A stretch of DNA of 64,000 nucleotides from Candidatus Eiseniibacteriota bacterium (GCA_030595835.1 JAUVLG010000001.1:4614-68613), one strand, 5' to 3'. Counted from the first letter of the stretch, positions 47,731-63,899 are shown. Numbers and translations are program-made. The notes: generated by a model not told the origin, from the letters alone.

Positions 47731-50106
47731 ATGAAGACCAGCAAACGACACAGCGAAGAGCGGAGAGTGCGCGCGCCAAGGGACGGCGAAGCGCCGCCAC
47801 TCTTCGGAAGCCACGCGACACTCATCTCGATCCTGCTCCTGGTAGCCGCGGGGCTCATCTTCTTCTGGCGAGTGCTCTTCCTTGGTGAGATCCTGACGGG
47901 CGGCGACGTCCTGGCTGCGGCAGCCATCTTCGAGGACTACGCGACGGACCAGATGGCGAGCGGGCGGCTCCCCCTCTGGAACCCGTACATCTTCTCGGGA
48001 ATGCCGTTCTTCGACAGCATGAGCTGGAGTGCCTTCGTCTACCCGAGCTACTGGCTCACGTTTGCCCTGGAGAAGATCCCGGGCGTCGAGCTGCCCCGGC
48101 TCTTCTTCCTGTTCCTGCACTACGAGCTGGCCGCGCTCGGCACGTACTTCTACCTGCGGTCACGTAAGGTCGGCCACGGCGGCGCCGTCATCGCGGGGCT
48201 GGCCTTCATGCTGTCACCTCATATGATAGGCTTAGCTACGATCGGGCACGGAGGGAAGATACTCGCGACGGCTTATCTTCCGCTCATCCTGATGGCCGCG
48301 CACAAGCTGATGGAGTCGGCTGACAGGCGGTGGATCGCGATTCTGGGCCTCGTCGGCGGGCTGCAGTTCCTCGCCCGACACGTGCAGATAAGTTACTACA
48401 CATGGCTGGCCGTCCTCGTGCTTATGGTCTACTACCTTGTGGTGCGCCGCCGGGCAGGCGAGCCGTGGAACGCACTGGGCGCGAGCGTCGGGTCAGTGGC
48501 AATCGGCGGCGTTCTGTCCGCAATGCTCGCGGCCGTTCTGCTTCTGCCACTCATGAGTTACTCAGAGTTCTCTACGCGCGCCGCGCACGCCGGCGGGATG
48601 GGTTTCGAGAACGCGGTGATGTGGTCGATGCACCCCAAGGAACTCCTGACCTTCCTTGTCCCGTCCTTCTTCGGCCTGGCGAACGAAACCTACTGGGGGA
48701 CCATGCCGTTCCAGCAGGTCTCTCACTACGTCGGTTACGTGGTGCTCTGCCTCGGTGCTGTTGCGTTGATACGAAGGAAGGACCGCAGCGTCGGCTTCCT
48801 TCTTGCCCTGGTGGCCGTTGGGATCTTCATGTCGTTCGGACGGCACCTGGGACCTGTCTACAGGGTGATCTACCAGGTGCTGCCGGGCTTCCGGCGCTTC
48901 AGGGTCCCTGCCATGTCGCTGATACTGGCGCAGTTCTCGCTGGCGGTACTCGCCGGCTACGGTGCCTCGCTGCTGCTGGGGGAAACCGGGCGTCGCCGGG
49001 GAAGCATGGTACGGTGGGCCATCGGTTGCGCCGCGCTCGGAGGCGTGGTGAGTCTGATCGTAATGGCATCTCGGGGATCGATCGGATCCGCGGCCACAAC
49101 GGCGCTCATGCTGAAGCACGTCGGTGCCCAGGCATCCGCGCTCCGGGAGGTCGGCGCACGTGCGGCCACCATGGCGTTCCGGGACGCAGGAATCCTATTG
49201 GCATTCGCTGCCGCCTCGGGCGTGGCGGTCTTCGTCGCCGGCACGCGCAGGCTGCCTCGCCTGCTCGTGTTCACCCTGCTTCTCGGAGTGGTGATCTGGG
49301 ACGTGGGTGTGGTGAACGCGCGCTTCATGCACCCAGAGAAGATGAGTTCGCTCGATCAGTACTACCGGGAGTCACCGGCCGTATCGTTCCTGAAGCAGCA
49401 GGAGGGCGTGTTCCGGATCGCGCCCGTCGACAGGGAGTTCTCCTCGAACGTGTGGATGTACCATCGGATCCAGACCATCGGCGGCTACCACCCGGCCAAG
49501 CTGGCGGTCGCCGACGACCTTCTGGGCAAGCTGGGTATCGGCAATCTGAAGCTCCTGGCTCTCCTCAACGTCAAATACGTAGTCGGGCCGGAGGAACTCG
49601 ATCACCCGGCGTTTGTGCGCGTTGCACCCGGGGTACACGAGAACCTCGCTGCATTCCCAAGGGTGTTTCTGATCGGCTCGGTCAAGCAGGTCTCGCGCGA
49701 GAGGATGGCACTGACCGAGCTCGGTATCGACAACTTCAATCCGGCAGAGACCGCGATCTTGCTGGAGGAGCTGCCCGGCCCGGTATTTGGCACCGAGGGG
49801 AGCACAGCCGAGCTGGTTTCGTACGAAGCGCACGAGATGACCGTGCACGCCAGCATCCGGCAACCTTGTCTTCTCGTCTTTTCCGAGGTATACTATCCGC
49901 CGGGTTGGAAGGCGTTTGTTGATGGCGCCGAGACGACAATCTATCGAACCGACTACGCTCTGAGATCGGTGTATCTTACGCTCGGTGAACACACCGTGGT
50001 GATGAGGTACGTCCCATCTCAGTTGCGTCGTGGCCTCTTCATCAGTCTCCTCGCGGCCGCTGCCCTAGTGGGACTTTTGGTGTGGCCGGTGAAGCGACAC
50101 GAATAG
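47731..50106 (+). CDS. YfhO-family GT-C membrane glycosyltransferase
   Basis: 791 aa. Large N-terminal TM domain, then a C-terminal domain with EVYYPPGWKAFVDGAETTIYRTDYALRSVYLTLGEHTVVMRY, the characteristic YfhO tail. Confidence 0.75.
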   Translation: MKTSKRHSEERRVRAPRDGEAPPLFGSHATLISILLLVAAGLIFFWRVLFLGEILTGGDVLAAAAIFEDYATDQMASGRLPLWNPYIFSGMPFFDSMSWSAFVYPSYWLTFALEKIPGVELPRLFFLFLHYELAALGTYFYLRSRKVGHGGAVIAGLAFMLSPHMIGLATIGHGGKILATAYLPLILMAAHKLMESADRRWIAILGLVGGLQFLARHVQISYYTWLAVLVLMVYYLVVRRRAGEPWNALGASVGSVAIGGVLSAMLAAVLLLPLMSYSEFSTRAAHAGGMGFENAVMWSMHPKELLTFLVPSFFGLANETYWGTMPFQQVSHYVGYVVLCLGAVALIRRKDRSVGFLLALVAVGIFMSFGRHLGPVYRVIYQVLPGFRRFRVPAMSLILAQFSLAVLAGYGASLLLGETGRRRGSMVRWAIGCAALGGVVSLIVMASRGSIGSAATTALMLKHVGAQASALREVGARAATMAFRDAGILLAFAAASGVAVFVAGTRRLPRLLVFTLLLGVVIWDVGVVNARFMHPEKMSSLDQYYRESPAVSFLKQQEGVFRIAPVDREFSSNVWMYHRIQTIGGYHPAKLAVADDLLGKLGIGNLKLLALLNVKYVVGPEELDHPAFVRVAPGVHENLAAFPRVFLIGSVKQVSRERMALTELGIDNFNPAETAILLEELPGPVFGTEGSTAELVSYEAHEMTVHASIRQPCLLVFSEVYYPPGWKAFVDGAETTIYRTDYALRSVYLTLGEHTVVMRYVPSQLRRGLFISLLAAAALVGLLVWPVKRHE

Positions 50107-50118: not shown

Positions 50119-50832
50119 ATGAAGACTACGGTGGTAGTGCCCACCTACAACGAGAGAGCGAACCTGGAAGAGCTGATACCGCGCATCCTGGGGCAGCTCC
50201 CCGACATTGAGCTTCTGGTTGTCGACGACGGTTCCCCGGACGGGACCGGCGAGTACGCGGACTCGGTGGCGGCTGAGAACCCGCGCGTCCAGGTGCTGCA
50301 CCGGCCCGGGAAGATGGGCCTGGGTTCCGCCTATGTCTACGGCTTCACGCATTGCCTCGCCACGGACACCGAGCTCGTGATCCAGATGGACGCGGACTTC
50401 TCGCACAACCCGGACGAGATTCCCAAGCTCGTCGAGCGGGCGCGCACACACGACGTCGTTCTGGGCTCGCGGTACATCAGCGGGGCCAATGTGGTCAACT
50501 GGCCGCTCAGGCGACTGTTTCTGAGCTACTTCGCGAACGTGTATACGCACATCATCACTGGACTGCCACTTCGGGACTCCACGGGCGGTTTCAAGTGCTT
50601 CCGCCGGAAGGTTCTGGCTGAGATAAAACTCGATACCATCAAGTCCGACGGGTACTCGTTCCAGATAGAAGTGAACTTCAGGAGCTGGAGAAAGGGCTTC
50701 TCGATGGTCGAGATCCCCATAGTGTTCGTGGATCGTCACTCCGGCACTTCGAAGATGTCCAGGTGGATAGTATGGGAGGCGATGTGGTTGGTCTGGCGCC
50801 TGAGACTCGAGAGAATACTGAGGAGGCTGTGA
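50119..50832 (+). CDS. Polyprenol-monophosphate hexose synthase (Dpm1/Ppm1-like GT2)
   Basis: VVVPTYNERANLEELI...LVVDDGSPDGT...IQMDADFSHNP: canonical dolichyl/polyprenyl-phosphate mannose synthase core. 237 aa, soluble. Confidence 0.8.
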   Translation: MKTTVVVPTYNERANLEELIPRILGQLPDIELLVVDDGSPDGTGEYADSVAAENPRVQVLHRPGKMGLGSAYVYGFTHCLATDTELVIQMDADFSHNPDEIPKLVERARTHDVVLGSRYISGANVVNWPLRRLFLSYFANVYTHIITGLPLRDSTGGFKCFRRKVLAEIKLDTIKSDGYSFQIEVNFRSWRKGFSMVEIPIVFVDRHSGTSKMSRWIVWEAMWLVWRLRLERILRRL

Positions 50833-53036
50833 GCTACCCTTCAGAGCCCGACCTCTCGATTGTCATCGTCGGCTACAACAGCCTGCCGGAGCTGGGCAGG
50901 TGCCTGGCGTCGGTTCGAGATACCGCGGCCGCCATACATCCTGAGATCGTGGTTGTTGACAACGCCTCCGCAGACGGTACGGTGGAGTTCCTGGAGCGGG
51001 AACTCCCCGATGTGCGTCTGGTGGCCAACGGCAGGAACGTCGGTTACTCCAGGGCGGTCAACCAGGGCATAGCCGAGGCCAGGGCACGCTATATCCTGGT
51101 GCTCAATCCTGACATCGTCGTGCTCCCGGGCGCGCTGGACCGACTCGTCTCGTTCATGGACGACCAGCCGGATGCCGGAATCGCAGGGGCGAAGCTACTG
51201 AACGAGGACGGATCTCTACAGCACTCGTGCAGGCGCTTCTACACATTCTGGACGCTGGTGCTTCGACGAACGCCACTCGGGAAGCTGTTCCAAAACGGCA
51301 AGACGATCTCACGCTATCTGATGCTCGAGTTCGACCACGAGGAGTCGAGGGAAGTAGACTGGGTTCTCGGCGCCTGCATGATCGTGCGGAGAACGGCGCT
51401 CGCTGATTTCGGGGGTATGGACGAGCGCTTCTTCCTGTACTTCGAGGACGTCGATTGGTGCTACCGCGTCTGGCAGAGCGGGTGGAAGGTCTGGTACGTC
51501 GCCGATTCCGTCATGCGGCACCGGCACGCGCGGGAGAGCGCGCGAGGCGGCCTCTCCAAGCAGCTCATCGCGCATGGGCTCTCCATGATCCACTTCTACG
51601 AGAAGTGGGGGAAGGCGATCTACGGGTTGAAGAAGTACCGGACGGTTCTCACCAACTCGGTCCTCCTGTTCACCGACCTCGTCGCCATCAACGTCGGCTT
51701 CGGACTCGCCTACATCCTGAGGTCCAGCCTGCACGGACTTCTCGAGAAGCCGATGTTCGGTGTCTCGATCTACGCGACATTGCTGGCGTTCGCCAACCTC
51801 GTTTTCGTGGTCTCGTACGGGTTCTTCGGGCTGTACGGGGCCTCCATCGAGAGGGAGCGGTCATCGGACGTGGCCCTGAGGATCTTCAGGGCGGCCCCTG
51901 TAGCCGCTATCATCCTGATGGCGAGCACGTTTCTCACATCGAGGACCGTCTACTCGCGCGTACTCATAGCCGCCTTCTGCGTCCTGGCGGTCGTCCTGAC
52001 GTTCCTTCTGCGGATGGGACTCAAGAGGCTCCACTGGCTGGTGCGCGCCGGGCGATTCGACCTGACGAGGGTGGCGGTGGTTGGTACGGACGAGACCTCC
52101 CGCAGAGTGGCGGAGCGGCTGCTCTCGCACTCCGCGCTGGGCTATGATCTGGCCGGGCTCGTGGCGGCCGACGGCGACGAACGACCACCGGGCTTCCAGG
52201 TTATCGGGCGGCTGGAGGATCTGCCCGAGCTCATCGAGAAGCACCGGGTCGGAGAAGTCATATTCGCGGACTCGGAGATCTCTCAGGAGAGGGTCGCCGA
52301 CTTCCTCCTCAAGGCAAGAAGAAGCGCCGTCGACGTCAAGATGGTGTCCGGACTGACCGGCATCCTGACGCAGCGGGCTAAGGTCGAGGAATTCCTGGAC
52401 CTCCCCGTTGTCGCATTCGAACGCGAAGCGCTCCTTAGAGCCGATGCCGGGATCAAGCGTACGTTCGACGTCGTCGCAGCCGCCCTGCTCATTGCCATCT
52501 GGGCGCCGCTTCTTCTCGTAACGTCCGTCGCTACCCTGATAACCAGGAAGACCGGGCCTCTCTCGACGGTCGAGTGCGCGGGTCTGGGCGGAAGAACGTT
52601 CAGCATGCACGTCCTCAACAGGATCGACGAGCCGTCGGCGCTCAGGAGGTTCACGCTTCGTCACGGGCTCTCTGTCTTCCCGGCGGTCATCAATGTGCTG
52701 AGAGGTGACATGAGTTTCATCGGTCCTCGCGTGGTCGCCCCGGTGGACCCCGGCTCCCTCAACCTGAGGGAGCGACTGCGATTCGATGCGAGGCCGGGGA
52801 TCACCGGCCTTGCGCGGGTGTCCGCGGGGGAAGATCTGTGTTCTCGAGACGAACTCGAGGCACTCGACGCCTACTACGTGCAGGGTTGGTCCCTCGGCGG
52901 GGACGCCAAGATCCTGATGAGATGGTCCATGCAGTGCCTTCTGGGATGGGTTCATGTGTCGGGTGAACCAGGTTCGCTCGGAGCGCCGACGGCGTCCGAG
53001 GAGCTCGCCGGATCCGGCGCGTCCGGCGACCATTGA
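50829..53036 (+). CDS. Fusion protein: N-terminal GT2 glycosyltransferase + C-terminal WbaP-type polyprenyl-phosphate glycosylphosphotransferase (large PGT) domain
   Basis: N-terminus has SIVIVGYNSLPEL...VVDNASADGT...YFEDVDWC GT2 motifs. Four TM helices and a CoA-binding-like domain follow. The PGT core carries KRTFDVVAAALLIAIWAPLLL...NVLRGDMSFIGPRVVAP...PGITGLARVSAGEDL...LDAYYVQGWSLGGDAKIL. GTG start at 50829 overlaps the upstream stop (GTGA) and follows AGGAGG. Confidence 0.7.
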   Translation: MSYPSEPDLSIVIVGYNSLPELGRCLASVRDTAAAIHPEIVVVDNASADGTVEFLERELPDVRLVANGRNVGYSRAVNQGIAEARARYILVLNPDIVVLPGALDRLVSFMDDQPDAGIAGAKLLNEDGSLQHSCRRFYTFWTLVLRRTPLGKLFQNGKTISRYLMLEFDHEESREVDWVLGACMIVRRTALADFGGMDERFFLYFEDVDWCYRVWQSGWKVWYVADSVMRHRHARESARGGLSKQLIAHGLSMIHFYEKWGKAIYGLKKYRTVLTNSVLLFTDLVAINVGFGLAYILRSSLHGLLEKPMFGVSIYATLLAFANLVFVVSYGFFGLYGASIERERSSDVALRIFRAAPVAAIILMASTFLTSRTVYSRVLIAAFCVLAVVLTFLLRMGLKRLHWLVRAGRFDLTRVAVVGTDETSRRVAERLLSHSALGYDLAGLVAADGDERPPGFQVIGRLEDLPELIEKHRVGEVIFADSEISQERVADFLLKARRSAVDVKMVSGLTGILTQRAKVEEFLDLPVVAFEREALLRADAGIKRTFDVVAAALLIAIWAPLLLVTSVATLITRKTGPLSTVECAGLGGRTFSMHVLNRIDEPSALRRFTLRHGLSVFPAVINVLRGDMSFIGPRVVAPVDPGSLNLRERLRFDARPGITGLARVSAGEDLCSRDELEALDAYYVQGWSLGGDAKILMRWSMQCLLGWVHVSGEPGSLGAPTASEELAGSGASGDH

Positions 53037-53082
53037 GAAGGCTCTAGCTAGGCTATGATCTTGCATGAAGGAGCAGACAACC

Positions 53083-54456
53083 ATGAGACTACTACTGCTT
53101 ATCTCACTCGTCGTCGCGCTCGTGCCTGCGCTCCCTGCGGGAGCTCAGGAGTGGCTGGAGGTGCCACTCCCGGACGGGCCGAGCGACGGGAACCCGAAGA
53201 TCCTCGACATTGCCGTGGAGGGTAGCACGGTGTGGTTCTCCACGCTGCGCGACGGCATCATCGGATACAACGGCGCGGAGTGGGTCCTTCATACGCTCGA
53301 GGACGGTGGGCTCCGCAGCAACAATTACCGGTACGTGATTTTCGTCGACTCGGACGGAGACAAGTGGACCTCAAAGGACAACAGCGATTTCGCCGTGGAC
53401 AGACTCGATGACGGCGGGAGTTTCCTTTTGAAGAGCGACGACATCTGGACCTACTACAACAGCCCCACACCGTTGCAGAGCAACCGTGTGTTCGCAATGT
53501 CCGAGGATTCGGCCGGAAACAAGTGGTTCGGGATCAGGGACGAGAGCAGCAGCAACGCGGAGCCTACTACACTCGAACTCCTTGTAGAGAACGACCCTGA
53601 TACGACCGCGGATGACGAGTGGTTGGCGTTCGACTACTTCGACGACGAGAGCCTCTTCTTCGATGATGATGTGAGGGGTCTGGCGGTCGACCACGAGAAC
53701 CGTCTTTGGATCGTCTACGCGCCCGAAGGCGTGGGGATGGGGCTCGACGTGTGGGAGTTCGGCGACTACTACTCCTTTGACGACGATACGGTGACGCACT
53801 ACGGCCCGCTCGAGGGCCTCCCCAGCAGGTCGGTGTACGACGTCCACGTCGGACCGAACGGCCGCGTCTGGGTCGGGACCCAAGCGGGCCCGGCGTATCT
53901 GGACGCGTCGACCGATCAGTGGGTCGCTATCGACGACGTCACGGCCAGGACCCGGTCGGTCGCATCGGACGCCCAGGGACACATATGGGCCGGCACCGAC
54001 GAGGGTGTCGTCATGCTCTACAGAAGCGGTGAGGTTGTGAAGACCTACACCGCGCTCGCCGACGGCTTGCACGACGATGCGATCGCCCTGGTTGGCGTTG
54101 ATCAGACGAACGGAACGGTGTGGGCCGTCTCCGTGAACGGCGTGGACGAGACCTTCCTCAACGTGCTCGAGTCCGGGTTCGGTCCGGAGCCGCGCCTCTT
54201 CGCCTATCCCAACCCATGGAAGGCAGGGGAGACGTCCGAGAGGAACGTGAGTATCCTGGGCGCACCGGAGGGCTCCACCGTCGAGATCCTTGATATCATG
54301 GGGCAGAGCGTCCGGAAGCTCGACGCGGAGCGTGAACCCTACGTCTGGAATTCACTGGACGACGACCTGAACGAGGTGCCGAGCGGAGTGTATGTGGTCA
54401 GGGTAGAGACCCCCGCGGGCGAAATGATGTTCACGAAGGTCGCCATCATAAGGTAG
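53083..54456 (+). CDS. Secreted beta-propeller-like protein with T9SS type-A / FlgD-Ig-like C-terminal sorting domain
   Basis: Signal peptide MRLLLLISLVVALVPALPAGAQE. Repeated ...W.GT..G... propeller-like units. C-terminal domain FAYPNPWKAGETSERNVSILGAPEGSTVEILDIMGQSVRKL...SGVYVVRVETPAGEMMFTKVAIIR, with G.Y...V and terminal K..I.R. Confidence 0.6.
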   Translation: MRLLLLISLVVALVPALPAGAQEWLEVPLPDGPSDGNPKILDIAVEGSTVWFSTLRDGIIGYNGAEWVLHTLEDGGLRSNNYRYVIFVDSDGDKWTSKDNSDFAVDRLDDGGSFLLKSDDIWTYYNSPTPLQSNRVFAMSEDSAGNKWFGIRDESSSNAEPTTLELLVENDPDTTADDEWLAFDYFDDESLFFDDDVRGLAVDHENRLWIVYAPEGVGMGLDVWEFGDYYSFDDDTVTHYGPLEGLPSRSVYDVHVGPNGRVWVGTQAGPAYLDASTDQWVAIDDVTARTRSVASDAQGHIWAGTDEGVVMLYRSGEVVKTYTALADGLHDDAIALVGVDQTNGTVWAVSVNGVDETFLNVLESGFGPEPRLFAYPNPWKAGETSERNVSILGAPEGSTVEILDIMGQSVRKLDAEREPYVWNSLDDDLNEVPSGVYVVRVETPAGEMMFTKVAIIR

Positions 54457-54459
54457 CCA

Positions 54460-55923
54460 ATGAACAAGCAGAAGAAGGAAGTTCGCACGCTGGTGGTTGG
54501 TGCGGGATCCGCCGGGACGATGGCCGCAACCGAGATGGCCAAACGCTCCGAGCATGGCTACGTCGTCACGGGGTTTCTTGATGACGATCCGGCGAAGCTT
54601 GGGCGGACGATCGCCGGGGCTCCGGTGCTCGGTGCCATAGCGGACCTTGCAGTCGTCGCAGCCGAACACGACATCCAGGAAGTAGTCATAGCCATACCCT
54701 CTGCATCAGGCCACACCATCCGCGAGGTGGTGCGACTCTGTGAGGGGGCCGGGCGCTCGTTCAAGATCGTCCCAGGCGTCTGGGAGATAATCCTCGGCGA
54801 CGTCCAGATCAGTCAGATCAGGGAACTCGAGCTCGCGGATCTGCTGGGACGCGAGACCGTCGCGCTCGACACCGAGAAGATGACCGCCTATCTCAGCGGT
54901 CGCGTCGTCCTCATCACCGGCGCGGGCGGTTCCATCGGGTCCGAGCTGGCCAGGCTCGTCGCCGGGTTCAAGCCTTCGTGCATCCTTCTGATGGGACGGG
55001 GGGAGAACAGCGTCTACGAGATCGACAGGGAGCTGGCGATCGACCACCCGGACGTCAGTCGGGTTCCTGTTATCGGCAGCGTTACAGACGAGGTGGCGCT
55101 GGAGAAGGTCTTCGCCGAGCACCATCCAGAGATAGTGTTCCATGCGGCCGCGCACAAGCACGTTCATCTGATGGAGTTCTTTCCGGACGAGGCCATCAAG
55201 AACAACGTTACCGGCACGCGCAGGCTGATCGAGGCGGCCACGAGGCACGACGTCGACCGGCTTGTGATGCTCTCGACGGATAAGGCGGTGCGCCCGAGGG
55301 GTGTCATGGGCGCGTCGAAGCGCCTGGCAGAGCTGACGATACTCAGGAAGACGGCGGCGGGGTGCCGCACCAAGCTGATCGCCGTGCGTTTCGGCAACGT
55401 ACTGGGCAGCCGAGGCAGCGTAGTACCCATGTTCCAGCAGCAGGTTCGGCTTGGTGGGCCCGTCACGGTGACGCACCCGGACGTGACGCGATACTTCATG
55501 ACCATCCGCGAGGCCGCGATGCTCGTGCTGGAGGCCGGTTTCGCCGGCCGCGGTGGTGAGATATTCGTGCTGGATATGGGGGACCCCATACGAATAGCGG
55601 AACTGGCCGAGCACGTGATCAGGCTGTCCGGCCTCGAACCCGGCACGGATATCGCTATAGAGTACTGTGGACTCCGTCCTGGCGAGAAACTGCACGAGGA
55701 GCTGTGGTCCTCAGCGGAGACCTTGTCGCGGACCGAGTACGAGAAGATCATGGTCCTGAAGTCCAGTGACACACCGCCGCTCGCGCAGACGACCGCTGCC
55801 TCCGACGCGCTGGAGGAACTGGCCGCACGCGGCGACCGCGAGGGAATTGTCCGGATGCTCCGTGAACTGTTCGAGGACATGCCGGCGGAGGAGCTAGATG
55901 AAGACGGCACTACCTGCGGTTGA
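54460..55923 (+). CDS. UDP-N-acetylglucosamine 4,6-dehydratase (PglF/CapD/WbpM family, soluble form)
   Basis: N-terminal CoA-binding-like domain, then SDR core VLITGAGGSIGSEL...MGASKRLAE... Confidence 0.8.
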   Translation: MNKQKKEVRTLVVGAGSAGTMAATEMAKRSEHGYVVTGFLDDDPAKLGRTIAGAPVLGAIADLAVVAAEHDIQEVVIAIPSASGHTIREVVRLCEGAGRSFKIVPGVWEIILGDVQISQIRELELADLLGRETVALDTEKMTAYLSGRVVLITGAGGSIGSELARLVAGFKPSCILLMGRGENSVYEIDRELAIDHPDVSRVPVIGSVTDEVALEKVFAEHHPEIVFHAAAHKHVHLMEFFPDEAIKNNVTGTRRLIEAATRHDVDRLVMLSTDKAVRPRGVMGASKRLAELTILRKTAAGCRTKLIAVRFGNVLGSRGSVVPMFQQQVRLGGPVTVTHPDVTRYFMTIREAAMLVLEAGFAGRGGEIFVLDMGDPIRIAELAEHVIRLSGLEPGTDIAIEYCGLRPGEKLHEELWSSAETLSRTEYEKIMVLKSSDTPPLAQTTAASDALEELAARGDREGIVRMLRELFEDMPAEELDEDGTTCG

Positions 55924-57097
55924 GGGCGGCGAACCCGTCAGGGAGGAATTCCTTCCGTTCGCGACGCCCTCCGTTGGCGAGGACGAGATAGCCGAGGTCG
56001 TCGAGACCCTGAGATCTGGATGGCTGACCGTCGGTCCGAGAACGAAGAGGTTCGAGGAGATGATCGCGGGCTACGTTGGGGTCGCACGTGCGGCGGCTCT
56101 CAGCTCGTGCACGGCGGGCCTGCATCTCGGCATGATAGCCCTCGGCGTGGAGGAAGGCGACGAGGTCATCCTCCCGGCACTCAACTTCGTTGCCGGGCCG
56201 AACTGCGCGATTCATCTTGGCGCGACACCAGTGCTCGTGGATGTGGACCCAGAGACGCTCAACGTAACACCCGAGATCCTGGCTGCCGCGATCACGGAGC
56301 GCACGAAGCTCATCGTGCCGGTGCATTATGGGGGACGGCCGATTGACATCGACGGCATCATGGAGGTTGCGCGCTCCCGGGGTATTCCGGTTCTGGGTGA
56401 CGCCGCGCATGCTCTGGGGTCGGACTACGGCGGACGCAAGGTGGGGTCCGTTGCTGACGCCACGTCGTTCAGCTTCTACGTGACCAAGGGGATCACAACC
56501 GGAGAGGGGGGCAGCCTGACCTCCCCGAACCCCGACCTGGTTGAGCGCGTCGGAGTCTTGAGCCTCCACGGAATGAGCAGCGGGGCGTGGAACCGCTACT
56601 CGGCGCGCGGCTCGTGGTTCTACGAGATCCACGAGGCAGGTTACAAGTACAACATGAACGATATCCAGGCCGCCATCGGCGTCCACCAGATGAAGAAGAT
56701 CGACGAGTTCAGAGACAGGCGAGAGAAGATCGCACGAATCTTCGATCGCGGGCTTCGGAGCGAAGAGGCGATCAGTGTGCCCTCCTCGTCCGAGTCGAGC
56801 GGACACGCGTGGCACCTGTACCCGATCCGCTTGAGAACGCAGGCGCTTAAGGTCGACCGCGACTCGTTCATAGGGTGTCTCAGGGACGAGGGAATAGGAA
56901 CGAGTGTCCACTTCATTCCGGTCCACTACCACGACTACTACAGCAAGCGGCTCGGCTACAAGCGCGGTAGTTTCCCTGTGACCGAGACGTTCTTCGAGCA
57001 CGCGGTCTCGCTTCCCATCTACCCGTCGATGAGCGATGCTGATGCGAACGATGTGGTCGAGGCAGTGACCAAACTGCTGGCCTACTACAGGAGATAG
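55898..57097 (+). CDS. DegT/DnrJ/EryC1/StrS-family PLP-dependent sugar aminotransferase (PglE/PorR-like)
   Basis: SFSFYVTKGITTGEGG lysine motif and overall DegT fold. Confidence 0.85.
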   Translation: MKTALPAVEGGEPVREEFLPFATPSVGEDEIAEVVETLRSGWLTVGPRTKRFEEMIAGYVGVARAAALSSCTAGLHLGMIALGVEEGDEVILPALNFVAGPNCAIHLGATPVLVDVDPETLNVTPEILAAAITERTKLIVPVHYGGRPIDIDGIMEVARSRGIPVLGDAAHALGSDYGGRKVGSVADATSFSFYVTKGITTGEGGSLTSPNPDLVERVGVLSLHGMSSGAWNRYSARGSWFYEIHEAGYKYNMNDIQAAIGVHQMKKIDEFRDRREKIARIFDRGLRSEEAISVPSSSESSGHAWHLYPIRLRTQALKVDRDSFIGCLRDEGIGTSVHFIPVHYHDYYSKRLGYKRGSFPVTETFFEHAVSLPIYPSMSDADANDVVEAVTKLLAYYRR

Positions 57098-57160
57098 CCC
57101 TTCTGGGAGCGTCCGGGGTGATCCCCAACGAGGCTATCGCCGAGGACAGGCAGAGAAGAG

Positions 57161-58147
57161 GTGGCTCAAGCGTTGGACATAGAGGTATCAGTCGGCATCG
57201 ATTCGCAGGAGTGGGGCTGCCTCGTCGCTGAAGACGAGGCAGCTACGTTCTTCCATACGTCGGAGTGGTCCGAGGTTCTGACCTCGACGCTGCCCGGCTT
57301 CGAGTCGGCGCACGTCACCGCGCGTGAGCACGGTCGTTTGGTGTCCATCATGCCGGTACTCAGTCGACCGAGGCTCAGGACCGCGACGCTGGAGTCAATG
57401 GCTTTCGGCACCTTCGGAGGACCGGTGCTGGGCGCCCACGCTCCCGCGGCCGCAGCGGGGGCGGTACTCGCTGCATTCGCCGGCGCTGCGGCGTCGCTGC
57501 GGGTCGGGCTGGCGCAGGTGGTCGACCGGTCGGGCCGAATACAGGACTCGCATCTGCCCGGCTTCCGCCGCACCGACGATACTCTGCAGGTCGTTTCTCT
57601 CGAGGCGAGCTACGACGAGCTCGAGAGACACTTCAAGCCGTCCGCCCGCAACAAGGTGCGGAAGGCCATCAAGGCCGGAGTGACAGTCAGACGCGCGGAG
57701 TCCGAGGCGGACTTCCTGGCCTACCACGCGGTCCTCGAGGAGTGCAGCCGCGAGTGGGCGATCAGGCCACGCCCGGGACGCGAGTTCTTCAGCGCGCTGT
57801 TTGAGCTCGACCGGGACGTGGTGCAGATGTGGCTGGCGTTTCACGATGGTGACGTGCTGGCGGGCGACCTCAACTTCGCCCTTCACGGGACCGTGATGAA
57901 CTGGGGCAACGTGTCGACCGACGCCGCCAAGTCGCTCGCGCCGAACAACCTCCTGCACGCCAACGCGATAGAGCAGGGCGTGCGTGACGGGTACCAGACC
58001 TATGACCTTGGCTCGAGCGGCGGCATCGAGGGAGTCAGAGCTTTCAAATCGTCCTTCGGGACGGCGGACGTCCCGCTGCGAAGATTCGTGATGGAGAAGA
58101 CCTGGTATCGTGGCCTGAAGAAGGCTACTGGTCGCCGGTCGGGCTGA
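57161..58147 (+). CDS. FemAB / Acetyltransf_6-family (GNAT-fold) acyl- or aminoacyl-transferase
   Basis: Motifs SARNKVRKAIKAGVTVRRAESEADF, FFSALFE, WLAFHDGDVLAGDLNF, YQTYDLGSS and AFKSSFG match the BioF2-like/FemAB-like acetyltransferase family common in polysaccharide loci. GTG start. Confidence 0.6.
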   Translation: MAQALDIEVSVGIDSQEWGCLVAEDEAATFFHTSEWSEVLTSTLPGFESAHVTAREHGRLVSIMPVLSRPRLRTATLESMAFGTFGGPVLGAHAPAAAAGAVLAAFAGAAASLRVGLAQVVDRSGRIQDSHLPGFRRTDDTLQVVSLEASYDELERHFKPSARNKVRKAIKAGVTVRRAESEADFLAYHAVLEECSREWAIRPRPGREFFSALFELDRDVVQMWLAFHDGDVLAGDLNFALHGTVMNWGNVSTDAAKSLAPNNLLHANAIEQGVRDGYQTYDLGSSGGIEGVRAFKSSFGTADVPLRRFVMEKTWYRGLKKATGRRSG

Positions 58148-58249: not shown

Positions 58250-59536
58250 ATGAAATCCAGTGCCAGGATAGTCCTCCTCGTGGCCATCGCGGTCCACATT
58301 GTGTTCCTGGCGTCACTCATCGCCCCCGGGCACTTCCTGAATCCGCTTTTCCCCGAGGGGATGCACAATCTGGGTGAGGGGCAGGGCAGTGACTTCTATG
58401 CTTTCTATCAGGCCGGGCGCTACGTGCTCGACAATGAGAATATCTACACGAGACCCATGGACGACCCGGACCGCGTCGTTCCGTACGCGTACTTCTACCG
58501 CTACCTTCCATTCGTGGCGTACACGATAGGAGTTGCGGCGAATGCGGTCCCGCCCGTGGTCGCCTACTGGATCTGGGTCGCGATCATCGAGCTGGTCCTG
58601 GGACTCTGCATCTGGGGCACGCGCGGCATCACTCGAGACGGAAGCCTCTTCGCCTACCTGGCCGCGATGTGGCTCATGTACACGCCCTTCTATCTGGAAC
58701 AGTACATGGGGCAGCTCACGTTCGCGATGGCGGCGATGTCGTTCGCTTTCGCCGTGATGCACCTTCGGGGGAGAGCGCTTGCATCCGACGGTTGGTGGTG
58801 GGCCAGTGTGGTCATCAAGCACCTGACGGTGCTCTATGTGCCGATTCTGATCAGGTTGCGGAAGTACCGGACCATCGCCATCGCCGTACTGCTGCTGCTC
58901 GTGACGAGCGTTCCCTACTATCTGCTCCGGAACCACGGGACCGGCCATTTCACGCATGACAACTTCAGCCTCAATCTTGACCCCTACGCCGGGAACATGG
59001 GCGCTGTTGCCTTCTTCATGGTCATAAAGGAGCGTTTCTTCCCGTTCGCCTCACAGGTGCTGGTTCACCTGGGTCCGCTCAAACTATCGATCACACGCGT
59101 GGGCGTGGGGCTGATCATGGGCGTGCCCGTGCTCGTGAGTCTCTGGGCCACCTTTCGAAGGAGACCCTTCGATTTCCTCGAGTCCTTCGCGCTGTGGACG
59201 ATGGTGTACTTCTTCGTATTCAGAGAAGTGTGGGAATACCACTACGTTCTCCTGATGCCCGTGTTCGTGCTTCTCTACGCGCGGACGCGGGCGCGGGTGC
59301 TGTGGTTCATCTACGCGCTGGCCGCCCTCCCAACGCTCTTCGTTCTATATGACGTCCCCGGCTCGGACCCGGGAGAGGCGTGGGAAGCGTGGAGCGCGTT
59401 CGAGCACGTCCTTAACCACGGCTTGAAACTGATACCCGTCGTGTGGCTCTTCGTCTGGGTGGCCGCGGGCTACCTCCGCCGACACACGAAGCTCATGGAA
59501 TCCCGAATGGACACGGGACTCGACCTGCTCACCTGA
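58250..59536 (+). CDS. Polytopic membrane protein, candidate GT-C-fold glycosyltransferase (DUF2029/GT87-like)
   Basis: 428 aa, about 10 TM helices, aromatic-rich loops. The assignment rests only on context and topology. Confidence 0.4.
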   Translation: MKSSARIVLLVAIAVHIVFLASLIAPGHFLNPLFPEGMHNLGEGQGSDFYAFYQAGRYVLDNENIYTRPMDDPDRVVPYAYFYRYLPFVAYTIGVAANAVPPVVAYWIWVAIIELVLGLCIWGTRGITRDGSLFAYLAAMWLMYTPFYLEQYMGQLTFAMAAMSFAFAVMHLRGRALASDGWWWASVVIKHLTVLYVPILIRLRKYRTIAIAVLLLLVTSVPYYLLRNHGTGHFTHDNFSLNLDPYAGNMGAVAFFMVIKERFFPFASQVLVHLGPLKLSITRVGVGLIMGVPVLVSLWATFRRRPFDFLESFALWTMVYFFVFREVWEYHYVLLMPVFVLLYARTRARVLWFIYALAALPTLFVLYDVPGSDPGEAWEAWSAFEHVLNHGLKLIPVVWLFVWVAAGYLRRHTKLMESRMDTGLDLLT

Positions 59537-59626: not shown

Positions 59627-60736
59627 ATGCGAATTGCGTATCTCTCAATAGGCGGACACATACACACCGAGCGGTGGCTCCGCTTCTTCGTGGATCGTGG
59701 GCACGACGTCCACCTGATGACGGTCCAGCCTGCGCCGATCGAAGGCGTGAAGCTGTACGACATCCGAACGGGCATTCCCTTCAAGGCTCTGCACTACGCC
59801 GTGGCGCTGCGGGAAGTGAAGAGGATCCTGGCGGAGATCCAGCCGGATCTCCTGCACACTCACTTCCTCACCGGGTACGGCTACTGGGGCGTCTTCTCGG
59901 GATTTCATCCCAACATCCTGACGGTCTGGGGCGATGACGTCTACCTGACACCCCACACGTCCTTTCTGAAGGGCTGGCTCGCACGCATGGCGCTGAGAGG
60001 CGCCGATCTCGTAACGGGAGACTCGGACGACATACTGGAGCATGCCATCGCCATGGGGGCGGAGAGGGAGGCGTGCCACGTGATTCAGTGGGGCGTTGAT
60101 CTGGCGGCTTTCAGGCCCGACGCGCCGTCCGACGTGCGGGAGCAGCTTGGCATCCCCGCCGACTCACCGGTCGTCATCAGCATCAGGAGCTTCACGCAGC
60201 CGTACTACAACATCGACGTCATCGTGCGTGCCATTCCCGGGATTCTCGAGAAGCGGCCGGACACACATTTCATCATCGCCGGAAACGAGGGCGACGACAC
60301 GGAGTTCAGAGCCCTGGCCGGAGAGCTGTCCATCGACGACAGAGCACACTTCGTGGGCAAGATCCCACACGAGGAGCTGCCGGGGTACCTGGTGGCTTCA
60401 GACGCGTTCCTGAGCGTGCCGTCGGTCGATGCGACGGCCGTGTCGTTGCTGGAGGCCATGGCGTGCGGGACTCCGGTCGTGGTGTCAAGCCTGGATTCGG
60501 CGCTTGAGTGGGTCACCGATGGGAAGAACGGACTCGTCGTCACTCCGCGCGACCAGGGTGCGCTCGAGTCCGCCGTCCTGCAGCTCCTGGACTCGCCAGA
60601 GCGCAGGCGCGAGTTCGGGACCATCACTGCCGGGATGGTTCGGGAGCGCGCCGACCACGACGCGCACATGTCCAGAATGGAGGAGCTCTGCGTGGAGCTC
60701 GTCGAGCGCTGGAGGAAGACCAGTGGAACCAGCTAG
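59627..60736 (+). CDS. Family 4 (GT-B) glycosyltransferase
   Basis: MRIAYLSIGGHIHTERW start, then GT4 C-terminal E-x7-E region ...LEAMACGTPVVVSSLDSALEWVTDGKNGLVV. Confidence 0.75.
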   Translation: MRIAYLSIGGHIHTERWLRFFVDRGHDVHLMTVQPAPIEGVKLYDIRTGIPFKALHYAVALREVKRILAEIQPDLLHTHFLTGYGYWGVFSGFHPNILTVWGDDVYLTPHTSFLKGWLARMALRGADLVTGDSDDILEHAIAMGAEREACHVIQWGVDLAAFRPDAPSDVREQLGIPADSPVVISIRSFTQPYYNIDVIVRAIPGILEKRPDTHFIIAGNEGDDTEFRALAGELSIDDRAHFVGKIPHEELPGYLVASDAFLSVPSVDATAVSLLEAMACGTPVVVSSLDSALEWVTDGKNGLVVTPRDQGALESAVLQLLDSPERRREFGTITAGMVRERADHDAHMSRMEELCVELVERWRKTSGTS

Positions 60737-61679
60737 ATCAGTTAGCGTCATCATCCCCACATTCGGGAAGCGGGAGCTCCTCGAGGCTACGCTCGACTCG
60801 CTCGGACGGCAGACCTACCCCGCGGAGCAGATCGAGATCGTCGTCGTTGATGACGGGTCCGATGATGACACGTTCGAGTATCTCCGGTCGCTCGATACTC
60901 CCTACGCTCTCGTTCCCATCAAGCACGAGATCAACAAGGGGAGGGCCGCCGCCCGGAACACGGCCATCGAAGCCTCAACGGGCGACCTCACCGTGTTCGT
61001 GGACGACGACATGCGCTGCGAGCCTGATCTCATAGAGCGCCACGTCTCCTTCCACGCCGCGCACCCCGGTGTTGTCGTCATAGGCAGCGCCGTCACGGCG
61101 CCGGAGCTCGGCCGCGCGACCGTGTTCACATACCTTGACGAGATGGGGGTGCACCGTCTGCCGGCAGGCTCGGTATCTCCGGCCCGGTACTTCGCCACCA
61201 ACAACGCGTCCGTCGAGCGGCGACACCTCCTGGACGTTGGGTTGTTCGACGAGTCATTCAGAAACTACGGATGCGAGGACACGGAGCTGGCCTTTCGTCT
61301 GGAGGACGATGCGGGACTGAGGTTCATGTACTGCGCCGAGGCCGTCGCATACCACATACACACGCAAACGCTCGACGATGTCCTCGCGAAGCGCATCGGC
61401 AGCGTCCCCCCGTTGCTGCTGCTGATCACCAAGCATCCTGACCGCGCCTCCGAACTCTCCATCGACGTGCTGATGCCGCCCGCGCCGGGAGACTCCGTTG
61501 GAGTCAGGCTACATAAACTCCTCCTTGCGTTCTCCACGAACCGGCTCTTCTATGCGCTGGTCAAGTCGCTCGCGCGAGTCGTCTGGCTCCGCGGCCTCTC
61601 CAGGGACGTGATGGTGTATCTCATCGCCTGCCAGTACCGTCGCGGACTGCGCCTGATCTCGGAAGAGAACAGCAGCTGA
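60723..61679 (+). CDS. Family 2 glycosyltransferase
   Basis: VSVIIPTFGKRELLEATLDSLGRQTYPAEQIEIVVVDDGSDD...VFVDDDM. GTG at 60723 follows GGAGGA; the track's 60429 start lies inside the previous gene. Confidence 0.7.
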   Translation: MEPARSVSVIIPTFGKRELLEATLDSLGRQTYPAEQIEIVVVDDGSDDDTFEYLRSLDTPYALVPIKHEINKGRAAARNTAIEASTGDLTVFVDDDMRCEPDLIERHVSFHAAHPGVVVIGSAVTAPELGRATVFTYLDEMGVHRLPAGSVSPARYFATNNASVERRHLLDVGLFDESFRNYGCEDTELAFRLEDDAGLRFMYCAEAVAYHIHTQTLDDVLAKRIGSVPPLLLLITKHPDRASELSIDVLMPPAPGDSVGVRLHKLLLAFSTNRLFYALVKSLARVVWLRGLSRDVMVYLIACQYRRGLRLISEENSS

Positions 61680-62218: not shown

Positions 62219-62247
62219 TTGACAGGTATTGGGCCCGGTGCTAGACT
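62219..62247 (+). promoter_or_regulatory. Candidate sigma-70-type promoter for the microcompartment operon
   Basis: TTGACA, 17-nt spacer, TAGACT, about 95 nt upstream of the pduL-like ATG. Confidence 0.35.
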
Positions 62248-62342: not shown

Positions 62343-63095
62343 ATGGATGACGTCGAAAGGCTGGCCTCTGAGGTCATCCGAAGGCTAAGGGGAAACGAGA
62401 CCAACGCCAGCGGGCCCGGTGAGGGCCAGACCGCCGCAGGTGGCACGAGGGAACCCGCGTCCGGCGGAGGTGTATCCTCCGGCCAGGGACAGGGACAAGA
62501 GAAGCTCGGGGAAGCGGGCGCGCTGACGGGAATCCCGGTGACCGTGTCCGGACGCCACATGCACATCTCGAGGGGTGTGCTGGACCGGCTGTTTGGCGAG
62601 GGGTTCCAGCTGAGCAGGCTTCGCGACCTCGGTCAGCCGGGCGAATTCGCCTCCGAGCAGACGGTGACCGTAGTGGGTCGCTCGATGCGCACGCTTGAGG
62701 GTCTGCGTGTGCTGGGTCCCGTGCGGCCTTACGCGCAGATCGAGCTTTCTGGCACAGACGCTGTCCGGTTGGGTATCGACCCGCCCGTCCGGACGTCCGG
62801 CGATCTGGTCGGGAGCGAGAGCGTCACGGTCGTGGGTCCGTGTGGATCGGTGCATCTCAAGGAGGGCGTCATAATGGCGACCCGCCATATCCACATGACG
62901 GAGCGCGACGCTCGCGAGTATGGAGTTGCCGACGGCGCCCGCGTTCGCATACGCTTCTCGGGCGACCGTGCGCTGGTTCTGGAGAACGTGCTGGTGCGCG
63001 TCGGAAGAAGCTCGGCGCTCGAGCTGCACCTGGACACTGACGATTCCAACGCCGCGGGTGTGCGGCTGCCGATGACCGTGAAGATTCTTCGCTGA
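62343..63095 (+). CDS. pduL: PduL-type phosphate acyltransferase with N-terminal encapsulation peptide
   Basis: Two PduL repeats: GRHMHISRGVLDRLFGEGFQL..LGQPGEFASEQTVTVVG...LRVLGPVRPYAQIELSGTDAVRLGI and GPCGSVHLKEGVIMATRHIHMTERDAREYGVADGARV...LELHLDTDDSNAAGV. N-terminal amphipathic helix MDDVERLASEVIRRLRG, then a Gly/Ser/Gln-rich linker. Confidence 0.85.
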   Translation: MDDVERLASEVIRRLRGNETNASGPGEGQTAAGGTREPASGGGVSSGQGQGQEKLGEAGALTGIPVTVSGRHMHISRGVLDRLFGEGFQLSRLRDLGQPGEFASEQTVTVVGRSMRTLEGLRVLGPVRPYAQIELSGTDAVRLGIDPPVRTSGDLVGSESVTVVGPCGSVHLKEGVIMATRHIHMTERDAREYGVADGARVRIRFSGDRALVLENVLVRVGRSSALELHLDTDDSNAAGVRLPMTVKILR

Positions 63096-63131
63096 TCTTG
63101 AGGGTCGAAGCATTTGAGGGAGGTGTGGCAC

Positions 63132-63407
63132 TTGTCAGGCCTTGCGCTGGGGATGGTCGAGACGAAGGGCGTGATCGGGCTGATCGAAGCCACGGACGCC
63201 ATGGTGAAGACGGCGAATGTCACGCTGACGAAGTACGAACGGATCGGCGGCGGCTACGTGACGACGCTGGTCAGAGGTGATGTTGGTGCGGTCAAGGCGG
63301 CGGTGGCGGCGGGTGCGGAGGCCGCGCAGAAGATCGGCGAACTCGTGGCGTACCACGTGATACCGGCGCCTCACGAGATGCTGGAGGACGTACTGCTCAA
63401 GCCGTAA
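63132..63407 (+). CDS. BMC-H shell protein (PduA/EutM-like)
   Basis: [55 protein letters not shown]: canonical BMC domain. TTG start at 63132; the track's TTG is at 63114 and an in-frame ATG at 63153. Confidence 0.85.
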
Positions 63408-63478
63408 GGCTACCCTCGGCGGGCAGCCGGACGGACGATGCTGTGACGAACAACTGAATTCGTTCACAGGAGGTTACG

Positions 63479-63775: not shown

Positions 63776-63899
63776 CTGGGCGATCGTCCGGATGTTGTTC
63801 GGACGACCGGGCTCCGGCGGACCGGGTGCGCAGGCGCCCTCGCTTGTGCCGGGCACACCCAGCGCTATCCGCGCGCCCCAACCGGGGCAAGGGCGGAAC

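Follow-up and report, generated by a model that had tools for sequence, protein, structure and literature searches.

A single-propeller, PorZ-like protein encoded within a conserved glycan gene cluster of Candidatus Eisenbacteria

Why should a gene for a secreted beta-propeller protein, ending in a type IX secretion system (T9SS) sorting domain, lie in the middle of a set of glycan-biosynthesis genes? The question is raised by a 64,000-nucleotide stretch of DNA from a Candidatus Eiseniibacteriota bacterium (GCA_030595835.1, JAUVLG010000001.1:4614-68613; hereafter the window, in whose coordinates positions are given), where 53083-58147 holds four genes in mid-cluster: the propeller gene, a dehydratase, a DegT-family aminotransferase and a FemAB-like transferase. 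To our knowledge, the attachment of T9SS cargo has been worked out in detail for Porphyromonas and Tannerella only, and in both the genes for the acceptor glycan, those for the linking sugar and porZ are scattered over the genome. From homologies and gene order we infer that an Eisenbacteria operon for a surface glycoconjugate, conserved across the phylum, has its core in this region. The operon probably makes an amino-acid-tagged sugar, and its glycan may be a way of tying proteins to the cell surface outside Bacteroidota. The propeller protein could well be a minimal PorZ-like presenter of this glycan to the PorU sortase, a tentative reading to which we give somewhat less than an even chance.

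The propeller open reading frame (ORF; 53065-54456, + strand) encodes 463 residues, with an alternative start at Met7 (53083), and its C-terminal part reads YPNPWKAGE...SGVYVVRVETPAGEMMFTKVAIIR. A preliminary description of the locus had named a secreted propeller protein that ends in such motifs, and the matches of this ORF to Reg_prop and to TIGR04183 agree with it. A Sec signal peptide can be read by eye at residues 1-27 (53065-53145, +; ...ALPAGA/QEW), where LLLLISLVVALVPAL forms a hydrophobic core and AGA-Q a cleavage-type motif; no other segment of the protein is so poorly conserved (34% mean identity), and this one has a low predicted local distance difference test score (pLDDT). It is followed by a seven-bladed Reg_prop beta-propeller at residues ~30-370 (53152-54174, +; PF07494, E 3e-14), homologous to the second propeller of PorZ, and by a seven-stranded beta-sandwich, the C-terminal domain (CTD), at residues 381-463 (54205-54453, +). 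Both are seen when the family alignment is used for an AlphaFold2 (AF2) model (pLDDT 85.5; predicted template modelling score, pTM, 0.81), in which seven strands lie between residues 379 and 462 and reach the C-terminal end. The invariant residues of the propeller are mainly W, D, G and R, many of them Asp. That this is the only non-enzyme in the island, as had also been proposed, is not demonstrable; in the propeller itself no catalytic signature turned up. In the source databases the protein is annotated only as a 'two-component regulator propeller' or a 'T9SS sorting domain' protein.

Judged by sequence model, the CTD is a bona fide T9SS type-A sorting domain. The TIGR04183 hidden Markov model, suggested earlier as a check on the C-terminus, matches residues 381-459 with 31.0 bits (cutoff 23), and the five orthologues tested also pass it (28.7-34.7 bits). 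The scores to PF18962 (Por_Secre_tail; 23.8 bits) and FlgD_ig (20.9 bits) both lie under the gathering score of 27, and FlgD proteins themselves give E values above 0.3. The CTD is the most conserved segment of the protein, with 57.6% mean pairwise identity compared to 50.3% for the propeller, and it aligns with the CTD of PorZ and weakly with that of PorU.

The protein is PorZ-like in architecture, and PorZ, its best structural match, is its nearest relative of known structure. When the family is compared by hhalign with a PorZ alignment, built from the sequences in the PeerJ supplement of PMC7323717 together with PorZ-like hits, the match has a probability of 99.87% (E 1.5e-31), covers PorZ 372-767, its second propeller plus CTD, and runs colinearly from where the propeller begins to the final residue. 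The best NCBIfam model of the propeller protein is likewise T9SS_PorZ (NF052228; E 3.9e-22), to which the window protein scores 78.5 bits and the family 64-100, compared to 50.6 for an ordinary Reg_prop-CTD cargo protein and 398-513 for true PorZ controls. Like PorZ (PG1604/PGN_0509; PDB 5M11), the protein combines a signal peptide, a seven-bladed Reg_prop-type propeller and a type-A CTD sandwich, and it shares with it the motifs of the second propeller (GDKW ... DD-GT ... SDD ... AMAED-G-W-G) and those of the CTD (YPNP, SGVY and K-x-A-V/I-I-R, the last as a terminal K-x-A-I-I-R in the window protein). It differs in having one propeller in ~450 residues rather than two in ~760, in coming from Eisenbacteria and not Bacteroidota, and in its genomic place: the true porZ genes seen in this analysis, among them those of P0083 and P0084 (contigs of 46% and 56% GC), sit amid unrelated housekeeping genes, whereas the Eisenbacteria gene lies inside a glycan operon. 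A near relative outside the family, P0081, is on a 3.8-kb contig. The periplasmic hybrid two-component system (HTCS) sensors of Bacteroides (BT4663, BT3049, BT4673) have two propellers plus Y_Y_Y, a transmembrane segment and kinase or regulator modules, without a CTD and without surface secretion, and their high scores are made up of five to seven repeated partial matches, with no single colinear alignment. No canonical PorZ was seen among the Eisenbacteria-like homologue hits, in a search of limited sensitivity, and a search with a profile of the CTD alone returned short fragments only, with no PorU or PorZ-like proteins. PorZ retains its CTD uncleaved (PMC8545088), binds the anionic lipopolysaccharide (A-LPS) and passes it to PorU (PMC8545088, PMC12365241). 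It is the part of the Porphyromonas gingivalis T9SS attachment complex that delivers A-LPS, and it sits on PorQ. The preliminary description had called the propeller protein a cargo encoded in cis, and the type-A CTD and the locking of the gene into the operon fit this label; however, it undersells a protein that is colinear over its whole length with the second propeller and CTD of PorZ and has PorZ as its best structural match. Presenting a glycan is no less likely a role for it than being carried as passive cargo.

The gene is tightly packed between its neighbors. A gap of 29 nucleotides (nt) separates it from the upstream phosphoglycosyl transferase (PGT) gene and one of 3 nt from the dehydratase gene, which overlaps the DegT gene by 26 nt, and 63 nt lie between the DegT and FemAB-like genes. 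A scan for promoters and terminators found no excess over shuffled sequence, in itself weak support for an operon only; together with the close spacing it indicates that the genes form one operon. The orthologous family comprises ~80 clusters of proteins of ~450 residues at 42-100% identity, and the homologues of the propeller and its neighbors that have a named source are all from Candidatus Eisenbacteria. A 50%-clustered library of 1.84 billion proteins holds ~4 full-length, single-stretch representatives of the family; as the Reg_prop superfamily is huge (130,050 hits in the representative library), raw hit counts are uninformative. We analysed 24 family loci jointly, five from exact-protein look-ups and 19 from a metagenome scan, all of them Eisenbacteria-like. 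In every one with flanking DNA, the PGT gene is directly upstream and the dehydratase gene directly downstream of the propeller gene, and the same holds for a further locus (L196) that was reached from a 45%-identical FemAB-like protein and again contains the propeller gene. The order further downstream (DegT, FemAB-like, GT87-like, GT4 and GT2, the last three being glycosyltransferase (GT) genes) is the same at propeller identities of 38-59%, and in 14 further propeller/FemAB-like pairs the longest contigs are equal in size. Relatives at or below 29% identity lack the cluster. The co-localisation of the propeller with glycan genes is thus far beyond chance. In one of the loci (L001; ERZ25039514 contig_24556, 2.2 Mb) nearly all cluster genes are fragmented, for example into a 226-residue Bac_transf and 92-residue DegT pieces, with the propeller called at 556 residues; the pattern suggests frameshift errors in a long-read assembly rather than pseudogenisation.

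What would such an operon make? The preliminary description placed a dehydratase, a DegT aminotransferase and a FemAB-like enzyme downstream of the propeller, and Pfam and NCBIfam matches confirm all three. The first (54460-55923, +; Polysacc_synt_2, 365.5 bits) is a soluble UDP-N-acetylglucosamine (UDP-GlcNAc) 4,6-dehydratase of the PglF/WbpM type with an N-terminal CoA_binding_3 domain. Its best match in the PDB is Campylobacter jejuni WlaL/PglF (5bju; 260 bits), compared to 122-157 bits for PseB-, CapE- and FnlA-type structures, and PglF also outscores CapD, FnlA, CapE and PseB-type enzymes as its closest kind. The DegT-family protein (55898-57097, +; PF01041, 410.6 bits) is a sugar C4 aminotransferase like ArnB or PseC. 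Its NCBIfam scores are 373 bits for PseC (cutoff 423.5) and 365 for the ArnB type, and in the PDB it matches ArnB with 308 bits compared to 145 for WbpE, the structural representative of PorR, whose type acts on a 3-keto uronic acid; the nearest enzymes acting at C4 are ArnB, perosamine synthase and PseC. Among the 21 ORFs from 32884 to 61679 that were scanned with Pfam, none encodes the dehydrogenases WbpA and WbpB, the acetyltransferase WbpD, WbpS or a deacetylase of the carbohydrate esterase family 4 (CE4) like VimE, and none a hexapeptide-repeat N-acetyltransferase of the PglD type, in whose place a FemX-fold enzyme comes third. A PglF-like dehydratase followed by a C4 aminotransferase argues for a bacillosamine-like route rather than a Wbp/Vim route, and the product predicted from these homologies would be a 4-amino-4,6-dideoxy-N-acetylhexosamine (4-amino-4,6-dideoxy-HexNAc).

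Two known pathways provide the closest comparisons. The Wbp/Vim pathway of Porphyromonas gingivalis and Tannerella forsythia (WbpA, WbpB, WbpE (PorR), WbpD, VimE, VimA and WbaP; PMC7468200) follows the same logic, in which a DegT enzyme makes an amino sugar, a FemAB/TIGR03019-related enzyme aminoacylates it to leave a free alpha-amine for the sortase, and a WbaP-type PGT starts the chain. Its product is a 2,3-diamino uronic acid, whereas the Eisenbacteria cluster points to a bacillosamine-type 4-amino-4,6-dideoxy sugar and has all its genes in one operon together with the PorZ-like gene. The initiating, aminotransferase and FemAB-like enzymes had been described as counterparts of WbaP, PorR and VimA: the activity classes are indeed common to the P. 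gingivalis linking-sugar route (a PGT for initiation, an aminotransferase for the amino sugar and a transferase like FemAB or VimA), but the enzymes are analogues without orthology, the DegT protein having 28% identity to P. gingivalis PorR. The Pgl pathway of Campylobacter and Neisseria (PglF, PglE, PglD, PglC) similarly has a PglF-like dehydratase followed by a DegT enzyme, with a Bac_transf PGT adjacent; in Eisenbacteria, however, a FemX-fold transferase replaces PglD, the PGT is a large one of the WbaP type fused to a GT2 domain, and the aminotransferase is nearer to ArnB and PseC than to recognised PglE. No oligosaccharyltransferase of the PglB type was identified. Two other assignments were considered and rejected. 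A link to exosortase and PEP-CTERM was prompted by several XrtA-associated models among the best NCBIfam hits (TIGR03019, TIGR04063 and TIGR03013), but all of these score far under their cutoffs and the cluster has no exosortase gene. A pathway to pseudaminic acid or to 4-amino-4-deoxy-L-arabinose (Ara4N) is opposed, as the primary reading, by the dehydratase, which is PglF-like and not PseB-like, with no ArnA, PseG, PseH or PseI genes seen.

The third enzyme (57161-58147, +) is a tandem GCN5-related N-acetyltransferase (GNAT) of the FemABX fold (Acetyltransf_6, 60.3 bits; FemAB, 28 bits), and its best NCBIfam model is TIGR03019 (72.5 bits; cutoff 260). Searched with Foldseek, its AF2 model (pLDDT 93.3) finds at the top the aminoacyl-tRNA-dependent peptide synthases Sba18 and Sbb17 and FemX (TM-scores 0.70-0.72), then FemA and the synthase domains of MprF, with tandem-GNAT relatives that use acyl-CoA lower in the list. 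The family profile gives a similar picture against the PDB, with matches from E 3e-17 to 6e-11 (Sba18, 3e-17; FemX, 1.6e-14), and the family-invariant F295-K296 aligns with the 'FK' motif of Fem proteins, in which the key lysine lies: RFK in Sba18 and AFK in Staphylococcus aureus FemX. Lys305 is the key residue of FemX_Wv; Sba18 and Sbb17 have been crystallised with the amino-sugar compound streptothrisamine, and Orf11 moves Gly from Gly-tRNA onto the same compound, which provides a precedent for the aminoacylation of a sugar amine (PMC12945691). Orf11, Sba18, Sbb17 and FemX share with the Eisenbacteria enzyme the double-GNAT fold and the Phe-Lys catalytic motif, but the identity is only 14-17% and they belong to antibiotic or peptidoglycan pathways rather than to a cell-envelope glycan operon. 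From the modelled fold and the motif we predict that the enzyme is aminoacyl-tRNA-dependent and N-aminoacylates a 4-amino sugar. VimA, which is credited with adding Ser or Gly to the linking sugar of P. gingivalis and T. forsythia, also matches TIGR03019 (PMC7468200); the Eisenbacteria enzyme parallels it in enzyme class and logic. Elsewhere (L197, 8001-10229) a distant relative of the FemAB-like enzyme (28% identity) is encoded directly beside a DegT protein, in a different cluster that contains GT4 and sulfotransferase genes but lacks a propeller, which hints that the pair of DegT and FemX-fold enzymes is a recurring module.

In the window no T9SS component was found among the genes scanned. 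Following the suggestion of the preliminary description to look for porU and porV, we searched the genomes collected in GTDB for the N-terminal motif of PorV (AR..GMG, 14 residues, WNP), using a GC-biased DNA pattern, and checked hits with NCBIfam protein models, in the Eisenbacteria-titled loci and L063 only. Four loci titled Candidatus Eisenbacteria have PorV/PorQ-family genes above the family cutoff, and in two of these PorU is directly upstream (437.7 bits, and 404.4 in a second ended by the contig end; cutoff 420). Both genes also occur in a related Eisenbacteria assembly, GCA_964516845.1, that carries the orthologous cluster on CAZEXP010000001.1 with a 44%-identical propeller: on its contig CAZEXP010000005.1 a PorU gene (505.9 bits; cutoff 420) comes first, then one of the PorV family (237.6 bits; cutoff 90), then one for a T9SS-dependent M6-like protease. 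As for the core components that the hypothesis needs, the attachment machinery is thus present, as PorU sortase and PorV-family barrel, in a cluster-bearing genome. The pair of porU and PorV-family genes is common to L063 (CAZEXP010000005.1), L090 (DASTSZ010000223.1) and L098 (WJJG01000144.1), and may be a conserved attachment-complex operon outside Bacteroidota; in the first two the next gene encodes a 'T9SS-dependent M6-like inactivated metalloprotease' (208-382 bits, under the cutoff of 600). A second type of PorV/PorQ-family barrel in Eisenbacteria (L013, 5380-6447, -; L025, 4292-5356, -; best match of the former 'PorV2', NF052325, 185 bits, below cutoff) lies beside CTD-bearing proteins and not beside PorU. 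Its neighbors comprise a choice-of-anchor J protein and an NHL propeller, together with a protein of 684 residues that at its C terminus has a weak match to the CTD of PorZ, and these barrels are candidate PorQ-like partners. In the literature library searched we found no paper linking Eisenbacteria with type IX secretion, and a query for T9SS across multiple phyla gave none either.

Put together, these homologies suggest the following scheme. In the cytoplasm, the dehydratase and the C4 aminotransferase would turn UDP-GlcNAc into UDP-4-amino-4,6-dideoxy-HexNAc, and the FemX-fold enzyme would acylate the sugar amine with an amino acid from aminoacyl-tRNA, giving a free peptide-type alpha-amine. 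The PGT half of the protein encoded at 50763-53036 would put the sugar phosphate on undecaprenyl phosphate, after which GT2, GT4 and GT-C enzymes and a Wzx-like flippase would lengthen, flip and decorate the chain, for which phosphodiesterase-family membrane proteins encoded upstream may supply phospho-substituents. The propeller protein would be exported by Sec and then, by its type-A CTD, through the T9SS to the cell surface, to be held on a PorV/PorQ-family barrel through the unusually conserved CTD. There its Reg_prop propeller would bind the glycan of the operon and offer it to PorU, as PorZ does with A-LPS, and PorU would exchange the CTD of other cargo for the amino-acid amine of the glycan. 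The boldest form of this scheme, a self-contained anchoring module in which an undecaprenyl- or lipid-linked glycan, with a 4-N-aminoacyl-4,6-dideoxy-HexNAc as linking sugar in place of the Wbp/Vim product, is fed to PorU by a cis-encoded, minimal one-propeller PorZ that co-evolves with it, is unlikely to be right in all its parts.

Several observations weigh against the scheme. The protein fails the PorZ equivalog test, with 78.5 bits compared to a cutoff of 260, and falls outside that family because the first propeller is missing; there is a single propeller instead of two, and a Pfam scan found no match to PF21544, the N-terminal propeller of PorZ. A single-propeller Reg_prop-CTD protein also occurs among ordinary cargo genes, with no glycan genes near (P0087). 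The ligand of P. gingivalis PorZ is phosphomannan, not the linking sugar, and in that species porZ is not linked to the A-LPS genes. The propeller gene is the fastest-evolving of the cluster, which fits a variable surface antigen too, and synteny reaches into an unrelated bacterial microcompartment (BMC) locus downstream, so some of the adjacency may be inertia. The PorU and PorV-family genes that coexist with the cluster come from a related genome, that with the 44%-identical propeller, rather than from the window's own. The PorV motif also matched, at the level of the motif, Elusimicrobia (many), Acidobacteriota, Planctomycetota, Poribacteria, Hydrogenedentota and others; as some of these phyla are not known to have a T9SS, genes of the PorV family say little by themselves, and PorU above its cutoff is the stronger evidence. 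Finally, the donor of the FemAB-like enzyme could be an acyl-CoA, or the amino acid that it adds could carry a cap.

How do other explanations compare? The main rival, in line with the preliminary description, is that the protein is simply an ordinary cis-encoded T9SS cargo, either a surface lectin or structural partner that binds or arranges the operon's polysaccharide, or a protein itself anchored or glycosylated by it, with no sortase role for other cargo; this explanation lies on the unlikely side. The type-A CTD and signal peptide, the score far under the PorZ cutoff and the position as least conserved cluster gene, expected of an exposed surface protein, would all fit it, as would the plain cargo protein P0087 and the glycan-binding Reg_prop propellers of HTCS sensors (PMC8545088). 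It leaves aside, however, the colinearity with the second propeller and CTD of PorZ, the best structural match, and a CTD better conserved than the functional domain, an uncommon pattern in a signal removed by cleavage; moreover, the operon is predicted to make an amine-bearing sugar of the kind that a sortase needs, and the Eisenbacteria-like hits contain no canonical PorZ, within the limited sensitivity already noted. An improbable alternative has the propeller act on the polysaccharide itself, as an enzyme or as an assembly factor (for example a lyase or hydrolase, or a factor in chain length or export), at work in the periplasm or at the surface, with the CTD for delivery only. Virginiamycin B lyase, a seven-bladed protein with the same repeat, is indeed matched (E 4.7e-10, TMt 0.76), matches to SSL_N and F510_1955 glycosylhydrolase are weak, some members are labeled 'streptogramin lyase' by JGI, and the invariant Asp residues are many. 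Yet these enzyme-family matches are all far below threshold, the non-catalytic binders PorZ and HTCS sensors match much better, and there is no invariant constellation of His and Glu, the invariant residues being those typical of Reg_prop blades and of sugar binding.

The remaining two explanations concern the CTD and the neighborhood. That the CTD is a mere Ig-like or FlgD-type sandwich without a working T9SS signal, leaving the protein in the periplasm or on another outer-membrane route, is slightly more improbable than an enzyme: the PF18962 and FlgD_ig scores below the gathering score and the PorV-family motif hits in Elusimicrobia, Acidobacteria and Planctomycetota would agree with it, but not the TIGR04183 scores of the window protein and its five orthologues, nor the residue-by-residue alignment with the PorZ CTD from YPNP and SGVY to the terminal motif. 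The poor matches to FlgD proteins count against it as well, as does a PorU above the equivalog-domain cutoff beside a PorV-family gene in a cluster-bearing genome. We consider it very improbable that there is no functional link at all, the locus making an O-antigen or exopolysaccharide and the propeller gene being a passenger held by general synteny. Gene order is kept well past the cluster into the PduL/BMC genes, and N-acylated 4-amino-4,6-dideoxyhexoses are components of O-antigens, both of which would suit a passenger. But the gene has the initiating PGT on one side and the first enzyme of sugar modification on the other, in a run of minimal gaps followed by overlapping genes, none of ~25 loci, at identities as low as 38%, has lost or relocated it, and members of this tiny family are found in the context of the glycan cluster only.

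If the boldest form of the scheme holds, the second propeller and CTD would be the functional core of PorZ, and sortase-type anchoring to a glycan would be ancestral to, or widespread in, the Fibrobacterota-Chlorobiota-Bacteroidota (FCB) superphylum and not a speciality of Bacteroidota. The combination of a DegT aminotransferase with a FemX-fold aminoacyl transferase would then be a general signature of sortase acceptor sugars. In Eisenbacteria the pathway to an amine-bearing sugar, the initiating transferase and the putative PorZ-like presenter are packed in one phylum-conserved operon, which predicts the identity of the acceptor sugar, a tRNA-dependent aminoacylation of a nucleotide sugar and glycan binding by a single propeller. 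The hypothesis, drawn by homology and synteny from an uncultured lineage, is specific and testable. The one-propeller protein might serve as a minimal PorZ for structural work, and the gene set as a genomic signature for sortase acceptor glycans in other phyla. The individual parts (type-A CTD, Reg_prop propeller, PglF, DegT, FemX fold and WbaP-type PGT) are of known kinds; new are a one-propeller PorZ-like family with a fixed place inside a glycan operon and the apparent pairing of a C4 amino-sugar route with a transferase of the tRNA-dependent type in a non-Bacteroidota phylum that has PorU. Even if the link is not functional, a protein family that is small and had not been characterised before is now cleanly described.

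The wider window has a G+C content of 61-66%, and all genes called but one are on the + strand. Its first 32 kb are housekeeping genes (recX, alaS, rpsF/rpsR/rplI, smc, ftsY and the rib operon), the glycan cluster extends from ~32.9 to 61.7 kb, and a PduL/BMC microcompartment locus follows. The preliminary description had both the PGT fusion and a Wzx flippase flanking the propeller. The PGT is directly upstream, but the Wzx-like gene is not adjacent, being separated from the PGT fusion by the YfhO-like gene and a GT2 gene. This multi-pass membrane protein, similar to Wzx/MOP flippases (46356-47624, +), scores 27.3 bits to Polysacc_synt (gathering score 28.2); PF01943 is present in its orthologues of L002 and L004, and every long locus has the gene in synteny. 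It is followed by a YfhO-like GT-C membrane glycosyltransferase of conserved position (47731-50106, +; PF09586, 53 bits) and by a GT2 of 237 residues similar to the polyprenyl-phosphate sugar synthases AglJ, ArnC and PpgS (50119-50832, +; PF00535, 122 bits; NCBIfam matches to AglJ, ArnC, PgfS and PpgS, all sub-threshold), which at 73-87% identity is the best-conserved gene of the cluster and likely the donor supplier for the GT-C enzymes. The initiating enzyme itself, a fusion of GT2 and WbaP-type PGT (50763-53036, +), matches Glycos_transf_2 (88.8 bits), CoA_binding_3 (56), Bac_transf (79.6) and TIGR03025 (206.6, under the cutoff of 295). Downstream of the FemAB-like gene is a GT-C membrane glycosyltransferase like GT87/DUF2029 (58250-59536, +), syntenic and 61-76% identical to its orthologues, in which PF09594 (GT87) is found; the window protein itself has no Pfam match. 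It is followed by a syntenic GT4 (59627-60736, +; Glycos_transf_1, 112 bits; Glyco_trans_4_2, 87 bits) and by a GT2 (60729-61679, +; PF00535, 98.5 bits), the last gene of the conserved cluster, which has 316-residue orthologues in the same position; its longest ORF starts at 60429 and the orthologue-sized one at ~60729.

The upstream part of the cluster holds genes of other kinds. At 33782-37959 the set is unusual, with a radical SAM/SPASM enzyme, a DUF362 iron-sulfur protein and a flippase-like membrane protein (LPG_synthase_TM), together with an ORF without a family match (36065-36919). Proteins of the Phosphodiest/Sulfatase superfamily are encoded on either side of a GT9 heptosyltransferase-like gene (41978-43396 and 44530-46311), an arrangement kept in L002-L004; the second has an N-terminal multi-pass membrane region, as in EptA or LtaS, and the two may attach phospho-substituents to the glycan, a point of interest given that PorZ of P. 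gingivalis recognises a mannan that is phosphorylated. Directly after the glycan cluster, the BMC locus (62343-64000) encodes a PduL phosphate propanoyltransferase and has two BMC-H shell genes, and in homologous loci (L002, 18867-21344; L004; L196) it continues with genes for EutN/CcmL, for an aldehyde dehydrogenase and for a protein like RnfC. The locus may be a separate transcription unit, as suggested by a promoter-like site at 62219-62247.

Among the housekeeping genes, a UbiA-family protein (7950-8840) passes the model of decaprenyl-phosphate phosphoribosyltransferase (264.7 bits; NCBIfam cutoff 234), an enzyme of the actinobacterial arabinan pathway that is unexpected in this lineage, and a phosphoribosyl pyrophosphate (PRPP) synthase gene is close by (10342-11325). 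A PcrB-family gene (geranylgeranylglyceryl/heptaprenylglyceryl phosphate synthase; 3855-4652, 152 bits), for an archaeal-type ether-lipid enzyme, is also found in the Bacteroidota-like PorZ locus L006. The sole gene called on the minus strand (18470-19756) encodes 428 residues, has no Pfam or NCBIfam match and a coding-like G+C content at third codon positions (GC3) of 0.80, and lies where, alone among the 2-kb bins before 60 kb, the GC skew turns negative. A selA gene (L-seryl-tRNA(Sec) selenium transferase; 20269-21681, 520 bits) implies the use of selenocysteine; the ORF after it (21684-23237) is not SelB-like and has a C-terminal SPOR domain only. The window also contains one tRNA-Gln(TTG), at 10249-10322, and an FMN riboswitch (27827-27946, 107 bits) upstream of the ribD-led riboflavin operon.

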